Below, one piece after another: positions 4,975 through 14,087 of a stretch of DNA of 14,087 nt. Positions within the stretch are counted from its first letter, which is position 1. The number at the start of each line of letters is the position of its first letter. A program made the position numbers and the translations under genes. The notes under the pieces were generated by a model. That model saw nothing but the letters and a program-made list of their open reading frames with translations, was not told the origin of the DNA and searched no databases. The stretch comes from a virus: UHGV virus genome UHGV-1356053. The stretch is one strand, 5' to 3'.

Positions 4975-5319
4975 ATGTCAGATTTGGCTATGAAGGTTTT
5001 GAAATGGCAATCAACTGGCGATGTTGGCATCAGTAGCGCAACTCTTGCCTCAATCGCATGTGGGCTGAAAAAGAATATCTATGGTCATCACTTCGGCGCT
5101 CCCCATGACGCAGCAGACTTTCGGCGATGCGTTGCACTTGTTGAGCAGATTCCAGAAATCAGAGATTCATTCGACAAGGTTGCAAAGCGCGTTCCGGCAT
5201 TCAAAGGAATCCTCAACGAATGGGATTCACTCGTTGCTCTGTTGAAGTCTGAAATGAAGATACACGGAAACAAAGCACCAGAGACTTACAGAAGAATCAG
5301 CGAGCTACGCAAGGACTAA
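4975..5319 (+). CDS. Hypothetical protein, 114 aa
   Basis: ATG 4975 with GGAGA 6 nt upstream, immediately after the 4940-4960 terminator; no recognisable motif. Confidence 0.75.
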   Translation: MSDLAMKVLKWQSTGDVGISSATLASIACGLKKNIYGHHFGAPHDAADFRRCVALVEQIPEIRDSFDKVAKRVPAFKGILNEWDSLVALLKSEMKIHGNKAPETYRRISELRKD

Positions 5320-5406
5320 CCCGCCTCACACTCGATGAGGCCTGTACATTTCTCAAGATATCCAGACCTACCGCAATCATGTCAATCCAATAAATGGAGA
5401 TTCCAG

Positions 5407-5754
5407 GTGGAAGAAGAAATCTTCACTCGTGAAGAAGCTGCGTCGTATCTGAAGGTAGACAAAGGCACTATCACACAGTGGATACGAAGTGGACGACTTC
5501 AGGCCGCAAAGATAAATCCAGATAAACCTAAAAGTCCATATCGCATTTGCAAGTCAGACTGCATTGCGGCGCTTAAGTCTGTGAGACACAATAGCGCGGT
5601 GAATGCGGTTGATGTGCAGGAGGTTAAAGCATGTCAATCAAACTACGCGGTGGCACGTGGCACTGCGATTTCGTCGCGCCAGATGGATCAAGAGTTAGAC
5701 GCTCTCTTGAAACATCGGACAAAAGGCAAGCGCAAGAACTTCACGATCGTCTGA
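5407..5754 (+). CDS. xis: Excisionase (helix-turn-helix Xis family), 115 aa
   Basis: GTG 5407 with GGAGA 6 nt upstream is the best-supported start (the track's ATG 5335 has no RBS); FTREEAASYLKVDKGTITQWIRSGRLQAAKI is an excisionase-type HTH; 3' end overlaps the int start by 124 nt in another frame. Confidence 0.65.
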   Translation: MEEEIFTREEAASYLKVDKGTITQWIRSGRLQAAKINPDKPKSPYRICKSDCIAALKSVRHNSAVNAVDVQEVKACQSNYAVARGTAISSRQMDQELDALLKHRTKGKRKNFTIV

Positions 5755-6791
5755 AAGCAGAAGCGTGGAGAGTAAAAAATCTCGGGGAATCACCGAAAAA
5801 GCTATTCAAGGAAGCCTGCATACGGTGGCTGCGTGAGAAATCGGATAAGAAGTCCATTGATGATGACAAGAGCATTATATCGTTCTGGATGTTGCACTTC
5901 AGAGAAGCCATTCTCTCTGACATAACAACAGAAAAAATAATGGAGGCGGTAGACGGGATGGAAAACCGCCGCCATCGCCTGAACTGGGAGATGAGCCGGG
6001 ACAGGTGTTTGCGACTTGGCAATCCGGTGCCGGAGTATAAACCAAAGCTGGCAAGCAAAGGAACGAAGACGAGGCATCTGGCAATACTTCGCGCCATTCT
6101 CAATATGGCTGTTGAATGGGGATGGCTTGACAGGGCACCCAAAATATCAACACCACGCGTTAAGAATGGACGCATCAGATGGCTTACAGAGGAGGAATCG
6201 AAGCGCCTGTTTGCAGAAATTGCTCCTCACTTCTTCCCTGTGGTCATGTTTGCAATCACGACAGGCCTTCGCCGTTCCAACGTTACAGACCTTGAGTGGT
6301 CACAGGTCGATCTGGATAAGAAAATGGCATGGATGCACCCTGATGAAACAAAAGCTGGCAATGCGATCGGAGTTCCTCTTAACGAAACCGCATGCCAGAT
6401 ATTAAGAAAACAGCAGGGGCTCCATAAGAGATGGGTATTTGTCCACACCAAACCTGCCTACCGAAGCGACGGAACAAAAACAGCAGCGGTAAGGAAGATG
6501 AGAACCGACAGCAACAAGGCATGGAAGGGAGCGTTAAAGCGGGCAGGCATTAGCAACTTCCGCTTCCATGACCTGAGGCATACCTGGGCAAGCTGGCTGG
6601 TTCAGTCCGGTGTCTCTCTTCTTGCACTTAAAGAGATGGGAGGATGGGAAACTCTCGAAATGGTTCAAAGATACGCCCACCTTTCAGCCGGGCATCTCAC
6701 CGAGCACGCGAGCAAAATCGATGCGATTATAAGTCGCAATGGCACAAATACGGCACAAGAGGAGAACGTAGTTTACTTAAATGTGAGGTAA
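5631..6791 (+). CDS. int: Tyrosine integrase, P22 Int type (386 aa)
   Basis: AGGAGG upstream of ATG 5631; resembles P22 Int throughout as recalled (KRQAQELHDRLKAEAWRV, TGLRRSN, FRFHDLRHTWASWLVQ, GGWE..EMVQRYAHL with the catalytic R..HxxR..Y pattern); ends 15 bp from the att core. Confidence 0.97.
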   Translation: MSIKLRGGTWHCDFVAPDGSRVRRSLETSDKRQAQELHDRLKAEAWRVKNLGESPKKLFKEACIRWLREKSDKKSIDDDKSIISFWMLHFREAILSDITTEKIMEAVDGMENRRHRLNWEMSRDRCLRLGNPVPEYKPKLASKGTKTRHLAILRAILNMAVEWGWLDRAPKISTPRVKNGRIRWLTEEESKRLFAEIAPHFFPVVMFAITTGLRRSNVTDLEWSQVDLDKKMAWMHPDETKAGNAIGVPLNETACQILRKQQGLHKRWVFVHTKPAYRSDGTKTAAVRKMRTDSNKAWKGALKRAGISNFRFHDLRHTWASWLVQSGVSLLALKEMGGWETLEMVQRYAHLSAGHLTEHASKIDAIISRNGTNTAQEENVVYLNVR

Positions 6792-6805
6792 CTTATTGAT
6801 TTAAA

Positions 6806-6851
6806 TGGTGCCGATAATAGGAGTCGAACCTACGACCTTCGCATTACGAAT
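6806..6851 (-). other. attP core: 46-bp copy of the 3' part of tRNA-Thr(CGU) (thrW-type target); not a complete tRNA gene
   Basis: Minus strand reads ATTCGTAATGCGAAGGTCGTAGGTTCGACTCCTATTATCGGCACCA: anticodon-loop 3' half, T-arm GGTTCGACTCC, acceptor 3' strand and CCA. The sequence 5' of it (GGTGCTACAG) does not continue the tRNA, so only the att-core part is present. Confidence 0.85.
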
Positions 6852-6910
6852 CTGTAGCACCAATCATAACTATCTGTTTTAGCAAGCATTAACCGCATTC
6901 ACCAAGCAAT

Positions 6911-7046
6911 AGTTGATGGCACAAACAGAAAGTTGATGCATGATGTTGTCATGTGTATGTCACAAATACGGCACAACGATCTTCAAACATGTAGCCACTC
7001 AGCATAGAAGAGCACAAAGCCTTGCAATCCAGTGCAAAGCTTTGTG
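6911..7046. repeat. Short repeats in the attP arm; candidate arm-type Int/IHF sites and a hairpin
   Basis: AGTTGATG twice (6911-6918, 6931-6938); sCACAA(A/C) four times (6918-6927, 6959-6969, 6970-6979, 7010-7020); inverted repeat CACAAAGC (7013-7020) / GCTTTGTG (7039-7046) followed by T-rich sequence. Confidence 0.4.
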
Positions 7047-7082
7047 TGTCTCAGTTTTGTTTCATCGGTAATTATGTGTTCG

Positions 7083-7382
7083 CTACGATGCAAGAATCCA
7101 TACCAATAAGCATCCGATAATTGGGAAAGAAAAATCCAACAGACTTCCCACATCCCACACGCGTGGATCAAAACCTCCCCACCACGGCATGTTGATGCGT
7201 TTCCCTTTCCCAAACTTTTCTATCCAGCGATATTCTGCCTGGGTGTGTTCACGCGCAATGAAGAACGTACAACCGGCTATCGCACCGTAAGCCCAGTTTC
7301 CGGTAGAAAGGCCAACCAGTACCTGAGCCGCAAAAGCGCAAAGCGAGTGAAGAAATGGAGTGACATCAATGCTCTTAATCAT
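7083..7382 (-). CDS. Hypothetical small membrane protein (99 aa), translationally coupled to the tailspike
   Basis: Its ATG (7382-7380) overlaps the tailspike stop (ATGA); hydrophobic segments [30 protein letters not shown] and [16 protein letters not shown]; occupies the tailspike-to-attP slot where P22 and Sf6 carry gtrABC or oac. Confidence 0.65.
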
Positions 7383-9436
7383 GAAACTTCCCCATTGGTT
7401 GAAAATATGGCTCCTCCAACGCCAAGTGTATTTCGTGTTGCGCTCAACCTCAGAGGGCTGGAGTCAGAATTAGAATATCCTGTAGCAGAAATAAAAGATC
7501 CTCCACTAATAGTCAACTGCGGAACATCGGCTATATCTGAATAAGTTCTGTCAGCAACAGTATTATTTATAGCCACATGTGATCCAAAAAAACTTCTTAT
7601 TGTTTGGTTTTTAACTTTACTTCCTTCAATGGTTATCCTACTACCACAGTCGGCAATAAATCCTGAATCTGCATCCAGCGTTGCATTCATAAAAGAAGCT
7701 TCAGATCTCTCTACATCAATCCATCTAATATCTTTTGTGGGATTTGCACCAAATACATGACAAATATTAGAGTTAAACCTTACTCCATCTTGGAGGTGCA
7801 TTAATTTTTTTATATCTGTACCCCATAGCCTTGGAAAATTAACAGATGCTCCTGCATGGCAATCAAATCCCAGCTCAGCCCCTGAGATATCTACAGCCTT
7901 TCCTGAAATAACAGCGCCAGTGTCTGCATTAACGGCTGTTCCACAATTGCGCATATCATTACCAGCAACATCAACACAACCCGCACCATCAATACGCACA
8001 CCAAGCGCACATCCATAAAAACCTTTTTCAATATTTGGTTCAAGGACTTTACCACTTGTTTCTGCATCACTTTCTTCAACGTCATGTCGTCTTGCATCAA
8101 CATATGCTGTATGAATGCAGGTTAATCCACGATATGAGCAGTGTATAGTTTTATGGTCGCGTATATTAACATTTGAACCATCTCTTACATTCCACCCCAT
8201 ATAACAATAGCTTGCACTTGACCCCTGAAAATCTGCTTTAACATTATAAATACAATTAACTGACGCAACCGTACTCTCTGTGCACCGTTCAAACTTGCTT
8301 ACAGGCATTGATGCCTTGACATTATTTACCAGTTGCAGGGAAGAGTATCTGCTATAAGAAAAATCACATACGTAATACCCTTCTGGCATATATGCAGCAA
8401 CACTTTCCTCATCAGGAGCACATCCGGTATGATATGCACTAATTTTTGCACCAAAGCTACCATGAATTCCAACGTAGAACTTTCGAGCACCTGAATACGG
8501 ATAGAAATTAAGTTCAGCTTTTTGAGTTACAATAAATGCACAAACATCGCTATCATCTCTATTTTCTTCAATCTGAATAGCAAATACAGGACTTTTTGCT
8601 GCATCGCAAATGTAAAATAAATATTTGTATTCGTAATACGTCCTAACAGTTTTAGTAAACAAACTGGTATCAGAGAAAACCACTGAGTCTTCTGATATTA
8701 TTTTAATCCATGATAAGTCACATCCTGCTGAAATTTCTATTTGCTCATTGAGCACAAAACCGGAAAGAATTTTAATTATGCAAAAATCAATGCCATTTTT
8801 CCATAGTGGACGCAGTGCAACAGCTGAGTTTAGAGCATCACTAATAGATTTAAAATTACCATATTCCCCAACTGTTATTGTGAATGCATACCTGGAATTA
8901 AATACTGCGGCACTCTCTCCAGAGTTAATAGCTGCAGATATCATGTCATAATTTGATATAAAATCATTTGGCGTGATTATTTCTGCGTTTTTATTGTGCT
9001 GTGTTCTAAGTTTTGAATTTACATGAACACTTTTAACTGCAATACGGGAGTCGTCAACAAGTATTTCATTACCCTCTGTTGCTAACTCTTGTCTTAACTG
9101 ATCCGGGTCATACTTCAGCACATTCGGAAAATAGAACTGCTGCACACCGTACGCATCATAAACAGCCATAGAATGGCCCTGTACAGTAACGAATTTGGCA
9201 ATCTGTCCGTTATATACAGGGTAACCAGCAGCGTTAATGATGATTGGTTGCGAAACAGGAACGTGAGAACCGTCTTCGTTTTCCACATAAACCTGAATCT
9301 GGTTTTCAGGATTTACCGGGTCAGTGTCAATTTTCCCGATATAAATTTTGCCATTGGCTACGGCTTTAAAAGAACGCGCCATAGTGAAGAGTTGCGAAGG
9401 CATACTCACTACAACATTGGCTGTAATGTCTGTCAT
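7379..9436 (-). CDS. Tailspike protein: P22/Sf6-type N-terminal head-binding domain plus divergent receptor-binding (putative depolymerase) body, 685 aa
   Basis: N-terminal ~115 aa ([46 protein letters not shown]...NVLKYDPDQ) match the podovirus tailspike head-binding domain as recalled; the rest is Gly/Asn/Ser/Val/Cys-rich repetitive sequence compatible with a beta-helix; GGAG 8 nt upstream of the ATG. Confidence 0.95.
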
Positions 9437-9472
9437 TTAATTTGCTCCAGATACAAGGAATCGCCGCAGCAT

Positions 9473-9519
9473 TGCCACAGTGATGCATTATTAATCAAAC
9501 AAAGAGACCGCTGTGGTCT
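9473..9519. promoter_or_regulatory. Candidate operator elements in the divergent tailspike/mnt control region
   Basis: TGCCACAG (9473-9480) and its inverted near-copy CTGTGGTC (9511-9518; reverse complement GACCACAG); local palindrome AGACC-N5-GGTCT (9505-9519); lies in the 146-bp gap between the tailspike and mnt starts. Confidence 0.35.
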
Positions 9520-9582
9520 TATTGAGGATGCAACCAGCAGATAATAAGATGCCGATCCACTCACAAAAGCGAGGCATCAAGA

Positions 9583-9834
9583 ATGGGAAGAGATGACCCG
9601 CAATTTAATCTGCGGCTACCTTACGAATTAAAGGAAAAACTAAAACAGCGAGCCAAATCCAATGGCCGCTCTCTTAATTCAGAATTAGTTCAGATAGTGA
9701 CTGATGCTGTATCAAAGCCATCCAAAATTTCAGGCTATCGAGACGATGCGGAACGCATCGCTGATGAGCAGTCAGAGCTTGTTAAGAAGATGGTGTTTGA
9801 TACGCTGAAGGATTTGTACAAAAAACCCACCTGA
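9583..9834 (+). CDS. mnt: Mnt-type ribbon-helix-helix repressor (83 aa)
   Basis: MGRDDPQFNLRLPYELKEKLKQRAKSNGRSLNSELVQIVTDAVSKPSKISGYRDDAERIADEQSELVKKMVFDTLKDLYKKPT matches P22 Mnt along its whole length as recalled, including the C-terminal ADEQSELVKKMVFDTLKDLYKK. Confidence 0.93.
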   Translation: MGRDDPQFNLRLPYELKEKLKQRAKSNGRSLNSELVQIVTDAVSKPSKISGYRDDAERIADEQSELVKKMVFDTLKDLYKKPT

Positions 9835-9850
9835 AGGTGGGTTAATTTTT
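9824..9850 (+). terminator. Rho-independent terminator of mnt
   Basis: AACCCACC (9824-9831), loop TGAA, GGTGGGTT (9836-9843), then AATTTTT; the mnt stop codon lies in the loop. Confidence 0.75.
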
Positions 9851-11025: not shown

Positions 11026-12873
11026 TTATTGCTGTTCTGCTGTAATTTGGCTTGAAAGTATAGGGCGTATCGCATTTGCAGCATTATTTAGCGCTCTTTC
11101 ATAGGCTGGTGTTCCTGCTTTGGTGTTTGCCAAACGTAAGAGAGCATTCCTTGCTGCTTTTGACTCATACAAGCGCATCATTGCACCGAAACCAGCCTCA
11201 AGCCCCATTGATACGCCAAGAGTCGCAGTTGCGCCAATCGTCCTTATCCTGTTGGCTTGCGATTGCCCCGTCTGAGTTACTACATTTGCGGTGTCTGACC
11301 TTGCTGTTTGCTGTAGAACTTCATGAAGAGAATCAAGCTCTTTCATGTGCTTTCCAGAAAAAATAGTGTTGTAAATTTCACCGCCTGACTGAGATTTCAG
11401 CTTATTAACTTCAGTGATGAACTTGGCTGGAGAGTCACCGGCCTTTTCCGCTATTTTGCTGACATAAGCTGCACGCATAGCATCTTTCCCTTTATTATCC
11501 AATGCGCTCCAGATTCGTTTCACGTCAGATGGTTTTCTGCTTAATACAACGGTATTTATAAGTTCAGGACTGGCTTCACTGCTTGCCTTGTTGAGCTTGT
11601 TAGCAATGTTTTTATTAAGCACCTTATTATAAACGTTTGCATAATCGGAATTTGCTTTAAGGTATTTTGCTGCGTCTGATGCACCGAGGTTTTTTGCAAC
11701 TGCGTTACGAAGATCTTTTGACATTGCATTCTCTACCATATTGGTAGCTGCTTTTGCCTGGTTTGGGAAGACCATAGCATCTCCCTGAACATTAGATCTA
11801 AATGCTGTTCTGTGCTGACGCAAGAGATCAAACGTAACATCCAAATCAGTTGCAGGGTTTGCTAATTCTTCACGTAGGTTACGCAAGGATGTAAGCAGGC
11901 TTTGATTGGCAGACGTCCCAAGCCGTTCCTGTCTTGCGATCGCTGTATTCAGAGCATTCATGGTATTTGTGGTATCAACTGCGGCATTACCCATTTTATT
12001 GGTGACGTCATTGATAACAGCGCCAGCGGCATCCTTCCGCCCCCTTAACGTGGTGGTAAGAGATTTCACCACATCATCAGGGTTGTACTCACCAAAACGG
12101 TCAAAATAATTACTTACCAGCTTACTACGCGTTGCATATTGCTCCGCTCGCTTTGAGCCTGTCCCGAGCAAAGCCCCCTCGGCATCCTGAGTTAGGCCGC
12201 GAGTGAAAGCATTTTTCGGCGGGATAACATCAGATGTCATTGGTGTCACGCCCATCGATTCTGATGTGGCAATTTTCTTCGCCACTTCTGGCGCAATATC
12301 ACCTTTTATAGCCGTTATTCCACGCCCTATTCCCTTTGCTGCTGCGGAAAGAACCCCCTGAGCGGCAAGGTTAACTCCGGCATTTTTAGCTGCATTTTGT
12401 GCGAAATCGCCTTTCTGATTTGCGGCCTCTGCCAGTGATCCAATAGCCATGCTTCCTGCCGTTCCAACTCCTGGAACTAAATACCCGCCAATTGTTTCTC
12501 CAGCTTGCGCATAAGGGTCTGTTGGTCGATCGACTGGACGATAGACATCGTCCAAAACCTTGGGGCCACCAAGCCCCTGGCTGATTGCATTAATCAGACT
12601 TGCGCCGCCCTGCAATACGTCAAATGGTATGTTTACCAGACCACGACCAGCCTGTTCCGCAATTTGCCCTGCACTTTGACCACCAGTGAGCCAATCGCCA
12701 GCTTGTTGCATCAATGATGGTTCTTCCCGTGTTGGTGCATTATTGGCCTGATTAACTGTTTGTTGCTGAACAGCCTGACCAGCAAAATACTCATCAATGG
12801 CGGTGCCAATATCTTCGGTGCTCGTACCATCAGGAAAGGTAAATATCTTACCGTTTGCAGTTACTTTCATCAT
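11026..12873 (-). CDS. Ejection (DNA-transfer) protein, P22 gp16-like by size and position (615 aa)
   Basis: Ala/Gly/Gln-rich soluble protein of the size expected for gp16, immediately upstream (in late-operon direction) of the sieA/immI-position island and tailspike. The second ATG (12870) has the better-spaced GGTGG RBS. Confidence 0.8.
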
Positions 12874-13010
12874 TCCACCGTAAATTGAATGCCTGATTTT
12901 GAGGTATATGATCCAACCTGATTCCGTGGTTCTCCTGAAGGTGTCGAATCTTGTGCTGGCGCTGCGTCAGTATTCATTGACATATACCGCTTAACGGCAC
13001 TCCCCAATGA

Positions 13011-14087
13011 TTCACCTTTTTTAACATCCAACCCCAATATCTGACCGCCATTACGCTTCAGCTTATCAGGCAGAACAATGATATTGAGCGTTCAGGCGCT
13101 AACAATGTTGGGCTGACTGCTTTGCAAGGCCTTTCAGGTATTGCTGGGGTGTTTCAGCGGGAAAAGCAGGCTCAGCGGCAGAAAGAATTTCAGCAGGCAT
13201 ACGCTAATGCTTATGCGTCTGGTGATCGCGGTGCTTTGCGTCAGTTGGCTACTCAATATCCAGACCAGATTGAATCCGTTCGTAAAGGCATGGGGTTCAT
13301 TGATGAAGAGCAGCGTAATTCTATCGGCACCTTAGCGGCTGGCGCACGCCTTGCGTCATCGTCTCCAGAAGCAATGCAATCATGGCTGCAAAACAACGCC
13401 AAGGAACTGACTCGCGTCGGTGTTGACCCTAACAGCGTTGCTCAGATGTATCAGCAGAATCCTTCAGGATTTGGTGAGTTTGTTGATCACCTTGGAATGG
13501 CTGCTCTTGGTCCGATTGATTACTTCAATGTTCAGGACAAGATGGCTGGTCGTGAGATTGACCGAGGCAGGCTGGCAGAGACAATCCGCAGCAATCAGGC
13601 TGGTGAAGCACTTCAGGCGAGAGGGCAAAACCTTTCCTATCAGTCAGCAATGACTGGGCACAATATCGCAGCACAACGCTTGGCTCTGGATCAGCAAGAG
13701 TTCGGGTTTAAGATGCAGCAAGCGCAGGAAAAGGCTCAGCAGTTGATTAGCGAAGCACCTAAGCTGTCAGTAAACATGGAAAAAGGCATCGAGACGGCTG
13801 TAAACAATGCCACAGCATCATCAAACTCAGCCAATTCCATGAGTGCGCTTGCTCAACAGTTCAGAGCAGAAAAACCAACGACCGGCTTGTTCGGTAACGC
13901 ACAGAACATGTTCGCAAAACTTACCGGAAGCGATACGACATTGCGTGATTTGCGCATTCGCCAAAATGCCCTTGTTAACAGTCAGGTTCTTAAATTCCTA
14001 CCTCCCGGCCCAGCAACGGATAAAGACGTTGAGATCGTTCGACAGGGTGCGCCAACTGACATGGATAACCCTGAGACGGTCGCAAGA
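13011..14087 (+). CDS. Large Ala/Gln-rich protein, partial (runs out of window); 5' end unresolved
   Basis: One plus-strand frame is open for 359 codons from 13011 to the window end with no stop (checked codon by codon); no complete minus-strand ORF of 60 aa or more in the track. Candidate starts TTG 13122, GTG 13149, ATG 13290; none has a convincing RBS. Confidence 0.6.

Follow-up and report, generated by a model that had tools for sequence, protein, structure and literature searches.

The DNA analysed here is a 14,087-nucleotide stretch of virus genome UHGV-1356053 (the window), in which a small open reading frame (ORF), orf99, lies between a P22-type tailspike gene and the phage attachment site (attP). 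In phage P22 the same slot is occupied by the gtrABC genes, which modify the O-antigen, and the locus raises the question of what a gene for a protein of only 99 amino acids (aa) does in this place. A first-pass annotation, made from the sequence alone, had correctly assigned a small gene to this slot and had considered it a new conversion or exclusion factor or the remnant of a larger gene. Our analysis leads to a combined answer in which we have high confidence: orf99 is a functional gene for a cytoplasmic-membrane protein of about 100 aa, belongs to the protein family PHROG 1443, forms the terminal cistron of a cluster of receptor-binding protein (RBP) genes and serves as a homology arm of an exchanged RBP cassette. 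It is neither a converter of the Gtr or Oac type nor a remnant nor a recognisable holin.

A PHROG 1443 gene coupled to the tailspike gene

The tailspike encoded next to orf99 matches the Head_binding domain PF09008 with its residues 1-113 (E=2e-66), and its match to phrog_5662 spans the full length of the protein. The TGA stop codon of the tailspike gene and the ATG of orf99 have the four bases ATGA in common, and the first reading of a real 99-codon ORF on the minus strand with an overlapping start codon therefore holds. We found no sigma-70-like promoter and no lysis gene near orf99 in the window, and no further ORF between the tailspike gene and attP. The G+C content of orf99 is 48% and equals that of the phage backbone, compared with about 39% for the adjacent receptor-binding domain. 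Because int, attP, orf99 and the tailspike gene follow one another without interruption, the window represents the unintegrated (phage-form) map. The coordinates of all features are collected in Table 1.

The product of orf99 matches the profile phrog_1443, annotated as 'unknown function', with an E value of 2.4e-53, residues 5-98 being aligned to profile positions 1-94 of 97, and it is a plain member of this family in which nothing different was seen. A word-indexed database search with orf99 returned 440 homologue clusters at 90% identity and a search started from a sphingomonad member returned 729 such clusters, two sets that may overlap; a profile search of 1.84 billion cluster representatives yielded 441 clusters at 50% identity. 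The proteins are 63-146 aa long in the best 150 of these 441 clusters. Homologues are present in 1,918 of 5,426 complete Escherichia coli genomes (35%), with up to seven copies per genome. The closest named relatives are JEP4_21 (97% identical), GALLYPH_17 of phage Gally (90.5%) and CPT_21_24 of phage 21 (77%), the last of which is annotated as 'putative membrane protein', and a 100% identical protein is encoded on an IMG/VR contig. The sequence itself is already in the databases as a hypothetical protein, and its family is catalogued. All sources label the family 'hypothetical', the sole name being 'Ybl63' in UniRef; it is without a Pfam or NCBIfam model, and a literature search returned no functional study on any PHROG 1443 member. 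New here are the recognition of a pan-proteobacterial family with an enzyme-like invariant loop, its linkage to RBP genes across phage morphotypes, its chromosomal relatives, its RBP-linked transcription and its use as a crossover site.

Because of the full-length phrog_1443 match, the numerous homologue clusters and ratios of nonsynonymous to synonymous substitution rates (dN/dS) of 0.13-0.47 between orf99 and its relatives, orf99 must be more than a chance ORF. The gene is under purifying selection. Together with the full-length profile match and the existence of standalone family members of the same small size, this led us to abandon the earlier idea that orf99 is the remnant of a larger gene.

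Searches against other collections yielded no relatives of orf99 in Pfam at E<=1, in NCBIfam, in PADLOC or among the sequences of the PDB. When 146 diverse family members were compared with Pfam at E<=5, only scattered noise from transmembrane (TM) hairpins was obtained (e.g. PhoR, VirB3), including a noise-level match to Phage_holin_8 in one of the 146. Aligning the family profile by hhalign to P22 proteins resulted in probabilities of 0.6% for GtrA, 0.08% for the holin gp13 and 0.1% for SieA. With Pfam, the PDB sequence search and the hhalign comparisons with GtrA, gp13 and SieA all blank, no relationship to anything CHARACTERISED was detected. The impression at first reading that the protein does not resemble GtrA is thereby confirmed, and neither Pfam nor PHROGs nor hhalign revealed homology to a holin or structural protein. 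We accordingly excluded membership in the GtrA family (PF04138) by the blank Pfam search and the hhalign value, a described holin family by the lack of any Pfam or PHROG holin match and the gp13 value, and homology to a characterised exclusion protein by the SieA value and the lack of Pfam and PADLOC matches. A Gtr module was rejected because orf99 has no GtrB or GtrC partner and is co-oriented with, and overlaps, the tailspike gene. An O-antigen acyltransferase (Oac/OafA, Acyl_transf_3) was rejected as well, since these enzymes have about 330 or more residues with a 10-TM domain and orf99 codes for 99 aa without any Pfam match.

A nearly invariant loop between membrane helices

Hydropathy analysis and an AlphaFold2 model built on 52 homologues (pLDDT 92.4) place three helices at residues 8-27, 30-57 and 78-98, which fits a small integral membrane protein, as had been supposed from the sequence. 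In the predicted architecture, a helical hairpin is followed by an interfacial loop of 36 nearly invariant residues and then by a third helix. The helices vary within the family, but hardly any change is seen in the loop and at its borders, even between E. coli phages and Sphingomonas, Halomonas or Desulfovibrio. Conserved positions are H12, R44-E45, T47-Q-A-E-Y-R-W-I54, G58, G60, R62, M65-P-W-W-G-G-F-D72, W76, D83 and P87, and every family-wide invariant residue is present in orf99.

The orientation in the membrane was assessed from charge statistics. In the sphingomonad subfamily, charges of +0.9 for the turn, +3.4 for the C-terminal tail and -0.9 for the loop speak for an N-out/C-in arrangement, in which the invariant loop would face the periplasm. 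For the enteric phage subfamily, with a loop charge of +1.35 and no tail, the statistics are ambiguous. The orf99 protein ends with '...VWILAS' right after helix 3 and, like the other phage versions, lacks a charged tail; the chromosomal relatives bear a basic one.

Position beside receptor-binding protein genes

Gene neighbourhoods of family members were derived by chaining ORFs on the same strand. In the phage contexts examined, the family gene is located directly 3' of the last RBP gene and in the same orientation, and in many cases the codons of the two genes overlap or nearly abut. The exception is the jumbo Aeromonas phage ACP1, whose family gene immediately precedes the putative tail-fibre gene instead of following it. 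The common arrangement was observed in the P22-like phages JEP4, Gally and 611R6, in epsilon15-like prophages next to yfgI (L007, L008) and phage EC.W1-9, and in the lambda-like phages 21 and Perceval and the Qin prophage of BL21, where the homologue follows an stf or S74-type fibre gene. It recurs in P2-like prophages of Aeromonas and Leclercia (4-nt overlap or 0-nt gap to the RBP gene), in a P1-like plasmid prophage, and in a Comamonas siphophage behind a 2,520-aa GpJ. Further cases are a Desulfovibrio prophage, with the homologue behind a 935-aa pectate-lyase/S74 spike at a gap of 0, and a Chelativorans prophage, with the homologue behind a Laminin_G_3 fibre at a 4-nt overlap. The hosts of these RBP-linked copies are gamma-, beta-, alpha- and deltaproteobacteria. 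At 80 IMG/VR loci, the upstream partners fall into nine unrelated clusters which all match tail-fibre or tailspike PHROGs, indicating that the family protein is not matched to one receptor.

The homologue of the defective Qin prophage is intact, although its neighbours stf and tfa have become pseudogenes. Siphophage HC6 (L178 3465-3620) has a 51-aa remnant behind an S74-type tailspike gene, of which only '...RRRANIPWWGGFDWRAWDLPSLLD' is left, and six HC6-related phages show a partial match over residues 45-99. The HC6 remnant was probably dragged in with the 3' end of the fibre gene. An intact copy in Qin and a decayed one in HC6 fit a benefit tied to a temperate or lysogenic lifestyle. Unannotated partial copies also occur in the coliphages and Salmonella phages HC6, ST1UNAM, ZCEC08 and HC8A (about 47 kb) and in PBM-2 and PBM-3 (about 73 kb).

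Two further observations concern the genes between the RBP gene and the homologue. In phage vB_EcoP-611R6 (L004 2408-3961), the slot contains an OafA-type O-acetylase gene, a 37-aa fragment of a side-tail-fibre C-terminus and then the homologue; these genes are the fossil trace of a lambda-like block of stf and homologue that was inserted downstream of a true conversion gene. In lambda- and P1-like phages, an acidic 92-95-aa protein of phrog_1361 (unknown function) is encoded directly after Laminin_G_3/stf-type fibre genes and just upstream of the homologue (L002 5710-5988; L011 3994-4278 and 5601-5888; L175 3995-4276; L177 3210-3488). The phrog_1361 gene of E. coli LF82 is co-induced with the fibre gene in macrophages, and its product may be a fibre chaperone.

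The recombination joint inside orf99

The tailspike gene and orf99 are composed of segments related to two groups of phages (Table 1). The receptor-binding part of the imported cassette corresponds to an epsilon15-like E. coli prophage, which is inserted next to yfgI in several genomes and codes for a 729-aa tail protein as the counterpart. Residues 141-685 of the tailspike are 89% identical to this counterpart at the protein level, and the receptor-binding part has a G+C content of 31-44%, versus about 45-50% in the flanking phage backbone. On the other side, a segment related to Gally-type phages reaches into orf99, and the sequence from 9095 to 9842, comprising the head-binding domain and the sequence upstream of it, is Gally-like as well. 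The overlap of the two donor matches at about 7124-7355 holds the crossover, the sliding identity switching at about 7131/7132, inside orf99. From this switch we infer that the low-G+C cassette was swapped into a P22-like backbone with orf99 as the right-hand homology arm. Judged by these sequence matches, the cassette exchange was from podovirus to podovirus, between different genera.

Because orf99 is conserved beside highly variable RBP genes, it doubles as a right-hand homology arm for RBP-cassette exchange. Such a role has long been ascribed to the tfa genes of lambdoid, Mu, P1 and P2 phages, which are likewise conserved genes located 3' of a hypervariable RBP gene and provide homology for cassette exchange. 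The Tfa proteins, however, are soluble chaperones, whereas orf99 codes for a membrane protein without similarity to Tfa.

Transcription of homologues in E. coli LF82

Strain LF82 carries three homologues of orf99 in its prophages Gally (90.5% identical), Perceval (77%) and Tritos (77%), for which RNA-seq values are available as log2(fpkm+5) in the S1 and S4 tables of Misson et al. 2023 (PMC9928086). In LB-grown lysogens none of them rises above the prophage background, but in macrophages two are induced 8- to 30-fold along with the RBP gene (PMC9928086). For GALLYPH_17 the values are 3.75/4.53 in LB; in culture medium they reach about 6.0 at 1 h and 7.0 at 6 h, and in macrophages they are 8.0 to 8.4-8.7. 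The gene is one of 'the five rightmost genes', which rise 6- to 40-fold along with mnt and the tailspike gene, and the terL, portal and injection genes of Gally stay at 3-4 in macrophages (PMC9928086). PERCE_24 shows a log2 fold change of 3 (q = 2e-5) together with stf and the 92-aa gene, J and lom being flat (PMC9928086). The family gene is thus co-regulated with the RBP gene, not with the whole late operon, and is not constitutive in lysogens.

More generally, the tail-fibre or tailspike genes of the three LF82 prophages are 8- to 40-fold above their LB level in macrophages with other late genes silent (PMC9928086), which suggests that the RBP modules are served by a promoter or by read-through independent of late-gene activation. 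The Gally homologue is set apart from the tailspike gene by a strong terminator hairpin, and a promoter match at this site is at chance level. Because the homologue yields 0.6-1.4 log2 units more RNA than the tailspike gene in the samples from culture medium and macrophages, it may have some autonomous transcription.

A possible function in envelope protection or exclusion

As to the activity of the protein, we tentatively suggest an accessory function in envelope protection or superinfection exclusion, by analogy with Imm, SieA and HK97 gp15, which are not homologous to it. The size and architecture of the orf99 protein resemble those of such inner-membrane exclusion proteins, which are also small phage-encoded integral membrane proteins specified by accessory genes beside virion genes; SieA has three predicted TM segments (PMC10883804). 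The product of orf99 would be made whenever the RBP gene is transcribed, i.e., during late lytic growth and, in lysogens, when the RBP region is turned on. It would act at the cytoplasmic membrane through its invariant polar, tryptophan-rich interfacial loop, with residues H12, R44, E45, E50, R52, R62, D72 and D83 expected to cluster on one membrane face. Its target would be a ligand or partner common to Proteobacteria, not the O-antigen, and the protein may interfere with a membrane step of genome delivery by an incoming phage.

There are clear differences from the known systems. SieA is expressed in the prophage state from its own promoter; homologues of orf99, by contrast, show no expression above background in lysogens grown in LB. 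The family also differs from SieA, Imm and gp15 in having chromosomal non-phage members besides the lack of homology. Cor (HK022, HK542, phi80), Llp (T5) and lambda Lom resemble the orf99 product in being accessory envelope proteins encoded right beside receptor-binding genes, and HK542, which shares the int-attP module of the window, carries cor beside its tail-fibre gene. Cor and Llp are FhuA-specific outer-membrane lipoproteins and Lom is an outer-membrane beta-barrel, in contrast to the helical inner-membrane protein predicted for orf99, which occurs beside many unrelated RBPs.

Several points weigh against an exclusion function. None of the family members has a known exclusion phenotype, partner or ligand, and the family is not represented in PADLOC. 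Without a nearby sigma-70-like promoter, the start of orf99 is coupled to a late gene, and the positive-inside topologies of the sphingomonad and enteric phage subfamilies contradict each other. The occurrence in podo-, sipho- and myoviruses, which have different genome-delivery machines, and in chromosomes outside of phages points to a general biochemical activity, not to a phage-specific block. In LF82, the homologues are at background in LB, and none of the three was scored as a moron by the authors, who listed none in Gally (PMC9928086). TRITO_22 is flat even in macrophages, although multi-mapping of reads to paralogues may lead to undercounting (PMC9928086).

Chromosomal relatives and a possible role in host physiology

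Standalone chromosomal copies of the gene with the same motif were found in Sphingomonadales (the set of 729 clusters), Leclercia, Silvania, Aeromonas and Halomonas, the sphingomonad members carrying it in near-identical form. This raises the possibility that orf99 is a host-physiology moron, i.e., a captured cellular membrane protein with an envelope, lipid, ion or stress role in the lysogen like that of its chromosomal relatives and without a direct part in phage-phage conflicts, an explanation which we consider unlikely but the most serious of the alternatives. It would agree with the invariant polar residues, which resemble a ligand-binding or catalytic site, and with the induction of homologues in macrophages and cell-culture medium. 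A precedent for such a gene in a tail-fibre region is lambda lom, which has the chromosomal relatives OmpX and Ail.

At four sphingomonad loci only, the homologue is located 3-32 bp upstream of a gene for a cyclopropane-fatty-acid synthase-like (CMAS-type) methyltransferase (L171 7337-8626, L157 3221-4498, L146 1527-2843, L155 6337-7644). These represent three independent contigs, because L155 and L171 come from one contig, and L172 (gene at 1480-2709) is a possible fourth. The adjacency hints at a link to membrane lipids. The chromosomal copies otherwise reside in ordinary, non-conserved neighbourhoods, with genes for sensor kinases and OmpA, a urea-type ABC transporter, pirin, FtsZ or DAHP synthase nearby, and no conserved operon that would reveal a function emerged in sphingomonads, Leclercia or Aeromonas. 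A purely host-directed role also leaves unexplained the strict adjacency to RBP genes, which spans at least six phage architectures and four classes of Proteobacteria, and it is at odds with a gene that is silent in LB lysogens.

Relation to lysis genes

We regard it as quite improbable that orf99 codes for a late-expressed lysis accessory at the end of the late operon, such as a holin-like, antiholin or membrane-priming protein which tunes lysis timing. The protein shares a length of about 100 aa and three helices with class I holins (lambda S, P22 gp13), and the basic C-tail of the chromosomal relatives (+3.4 net) and their basic TM1-TM2 turn correspond to the N-out/C-in layout of this class. 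In the window, orf99 is moreover coupled to a late gene, and a lysis cassette directly follows the homologue in some lineages: epsilon15-like prophages have the order homologue, holin, holin, GH19 endolysin, DUF2514; on the metagenomic contig L014 the homologue ends 10 bp before a Phage_holin_3_3 gene, which is accompanied by a muramidase gene; and in the P1-like prophage it is located about 110 bp upstream of the genes for the LydA holin (phrog_1527) and LydB.

This is not the case in most carriers, including the lambda-like and P22-like ones, and 54 of the 80 E. coli loci, which are lambda-like, have no lysis gene downstream. P22- and lambda-like carriers possess a complete cassette for holin, endolysin and spanin elsewhere, far away from the homologue (Gally), and the chromosomal copies are without a nearby endolysin gene. 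A lysis function also accords poorly with up to seven copies in one E. coli genome. Furthermore, the phage versions are tailless, and the 36-residue invariant loop is unlike holins, to which neither Pfam, PHROGs nor hhalign (0.08% vs. gp13) established any homology.

Unlikely roles in RBP maturation and O-antigen conversion

A helper of RBP maturation or assembly that replaces a Tfa-type chaperone gene is very unlikely. The gene does occupy the usual tfa slot in P2-like phages and in Qin of BL21, and many of its partners are self-chaperoning fibres (Peptidase_S74) or tailspikes. Fibres, however, fold in the cytoplasm, whereas the orf99 product is an integral membrane protein, and the partner RBPs have folds unrelated to one another. 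In addition, there are chromosomal copies outside of phages, the Gally terminator separates the homologue from the tailspike gene, and in HC6 the gene has decayed with the fibre kept.

GtrA (120 aa) of P22 and SfX is also a small membrane protein encoded between the tailspike gene and attP, yet it has four helices and acts with GtrB and GtrC, while orf99 is predicted to have three helices and lacks these partners as well as any sequence relationship. The P22 gtrABC genes are on the opposite strand, convergent with the tailspike gene, and have their own promoter; orf99 is on the tailspike strand and translationally coupled. An O-antigen conversion factor matched to the adjacent tailspike, like GtrABC, Oac or D3 Iap, is hardly credible on this evidence, even though orf99 and the receptor-binding domain came together from an epsilon15-like prophage, an OafA-type acetylase is encoded in the same slot of phage 611R6 and small membrane peptides inhibiting Wzy are known: there is no GtrA or acyltransferase similarity, an essentially identical loop occurs behind at least nine unrelated receptor-binding domains of E. 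coli phages and lambda side fibres, the homologue of 611R6 coexists with the real O-acetylase instead of replacing it, and expression stays at background in LB lysogens. Sphingomonads have glycosphingolipids instead of lipopolysaccharide (LPS), and because these LPS-free bacteria carry homologues, an O-antigen function of the whole family is very unlikely. The proposal of a conversion factor in the first-pass annotation is therefore not supported.

Remaining features of the window

Table 1. Location of orf99 and neighbouring features in the window.
Feature	Position	Strand	Description
orf99	7083..7382	-	ATG start, 99 aa; PHROG 1443 / 'Ybl63' family; last cistron of the tailspike transcription unit
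P22-type tailspike gene, 685 aa	7379..9436	-	TGA stop; PF09008 and phrog_5662
Shine-Dalgarno-like GGGGAAG	7393-7387	-	4 nt before the orf99 ATG, within the last tailspike codons; read from the sequence
Imported receptor-binding cassette	7124..8743	-	Tailspike receptor-binding domain and first ~86 orf99 codons; 97.8% DNA identity to epsilon15-like prophage (L007, blastn)
Gally-type segment	7007..7355	-	Most of orf99, stop codon and hairpin; 95% identity to Gally-type P22-like phages
Terminator-like hairpin	7046-7013	-	14-bp stem, 6-nt loop, 37 nt past the orf99 stop; weak T-tail (CTCTTCTATG)
attP	6790..7060		thrW-like core at ~6790-6852 and one arm with repeat at 6957-6976
Tyrosine integrase gene, 386 aa	5631..6791	+	SfX/HK542 thrW-integrating type, convergent with orf99; PF00589, E=9.5e-35

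The stretch of about 230 bp behind orf99 had been described as lacking a convincing ORF, which is correct, as 6852-7082 contains only a 43-aa ORF and, overlapping it in antisense, a 76-aa ORF starting with TTG. Remnants of a gtr or acyltransferase gene had also been suspected there. We rejected such a decayed gene because the stretch consists of a conserved attP arm and the hairpin: over positions 5271-7060 the window shares 96-98% identity with the int-attP module of HK542, HK75, mEpX2 and SfX, and attP is annotated in the HK542 counterpart. The hairpin is likely the end of the late or RBP-gene transcript. A 20-nt direct repeat, ATGGCACAAATACGGCACAA, flanks the thrW-like core with one mismatch and a spacing of 218 bp; the partner of the arm copy, at 6739-6758, is inside the 3' end of int. 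Two matches to this repeat occurred in none of 200 shuffled controls, and the layout makes it probable that the two copies are arm-type integrase-binding sites. A third half-copy, ATGGCACAAA, is located at 6916-6925.

At the far end of the window, the sequence 13046-14087 (and 12870-13037) matches genes for gene-20-type DNA-ejection proteins on the plus strand, whereas the gene-16-type ORF at 11026-12873 and the remaining virion operon are on the minus strand. In the closest contig (L017) and in phage N7, the gene-20-type piece is collinear. This strand switch points to an inversion of about 1.1 kb in the window, which begins near 13047-13057 and by which the ejection-protein gene would be disrupted. 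Its other breakpoint is outside the window, and no inverted repeat was found at the junction; the inversion could be a real rearrangement or an assembly artefact.

Implications

The 'conversion slot' of the window holds no recognisable O-antigen-modifying system. It contains the gene for what appears to be a small accessory envelope protein, located beside host-range genes and non-homologous to the known proteins of this kind, and thus offers a cheap experimental lead. About one in three complete E. coli genomes carries the family, often in multiple copies and next to genes which determine host range. A possible, though doubtful, wider view is that PHROG 1443 consists of pan-proteobacterial tiny membrane proteins with an enzyme-like or ligand-binding site, which have been recruited by phages of every tail type as an obligatory companion of the RBP and combine a generic new envelope function with that of a recombination anchor. 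If this is true, the function of the family, e.g., a broad-spectrum barrier to genome entry or remodelling of the cytoplasmic membrane at a late stage, would be distinct from the known conversion, exclusion and lysis proteins. As a recombination anchor, the gene would let RBP cassettes move between P22-, epsilon15- and lambda-like phages, and its conserved sequence represents a natural crossover point for cassette swaps. Should phage exclusion or the modulation of lysis prove to be its function, this would bear on the prediction of host range in phage therapy and on the engineering of RBP cassettes. If its activity is the same as that of the chromosomal relatives, it would represent a new small membrane-protein function in bacteria.

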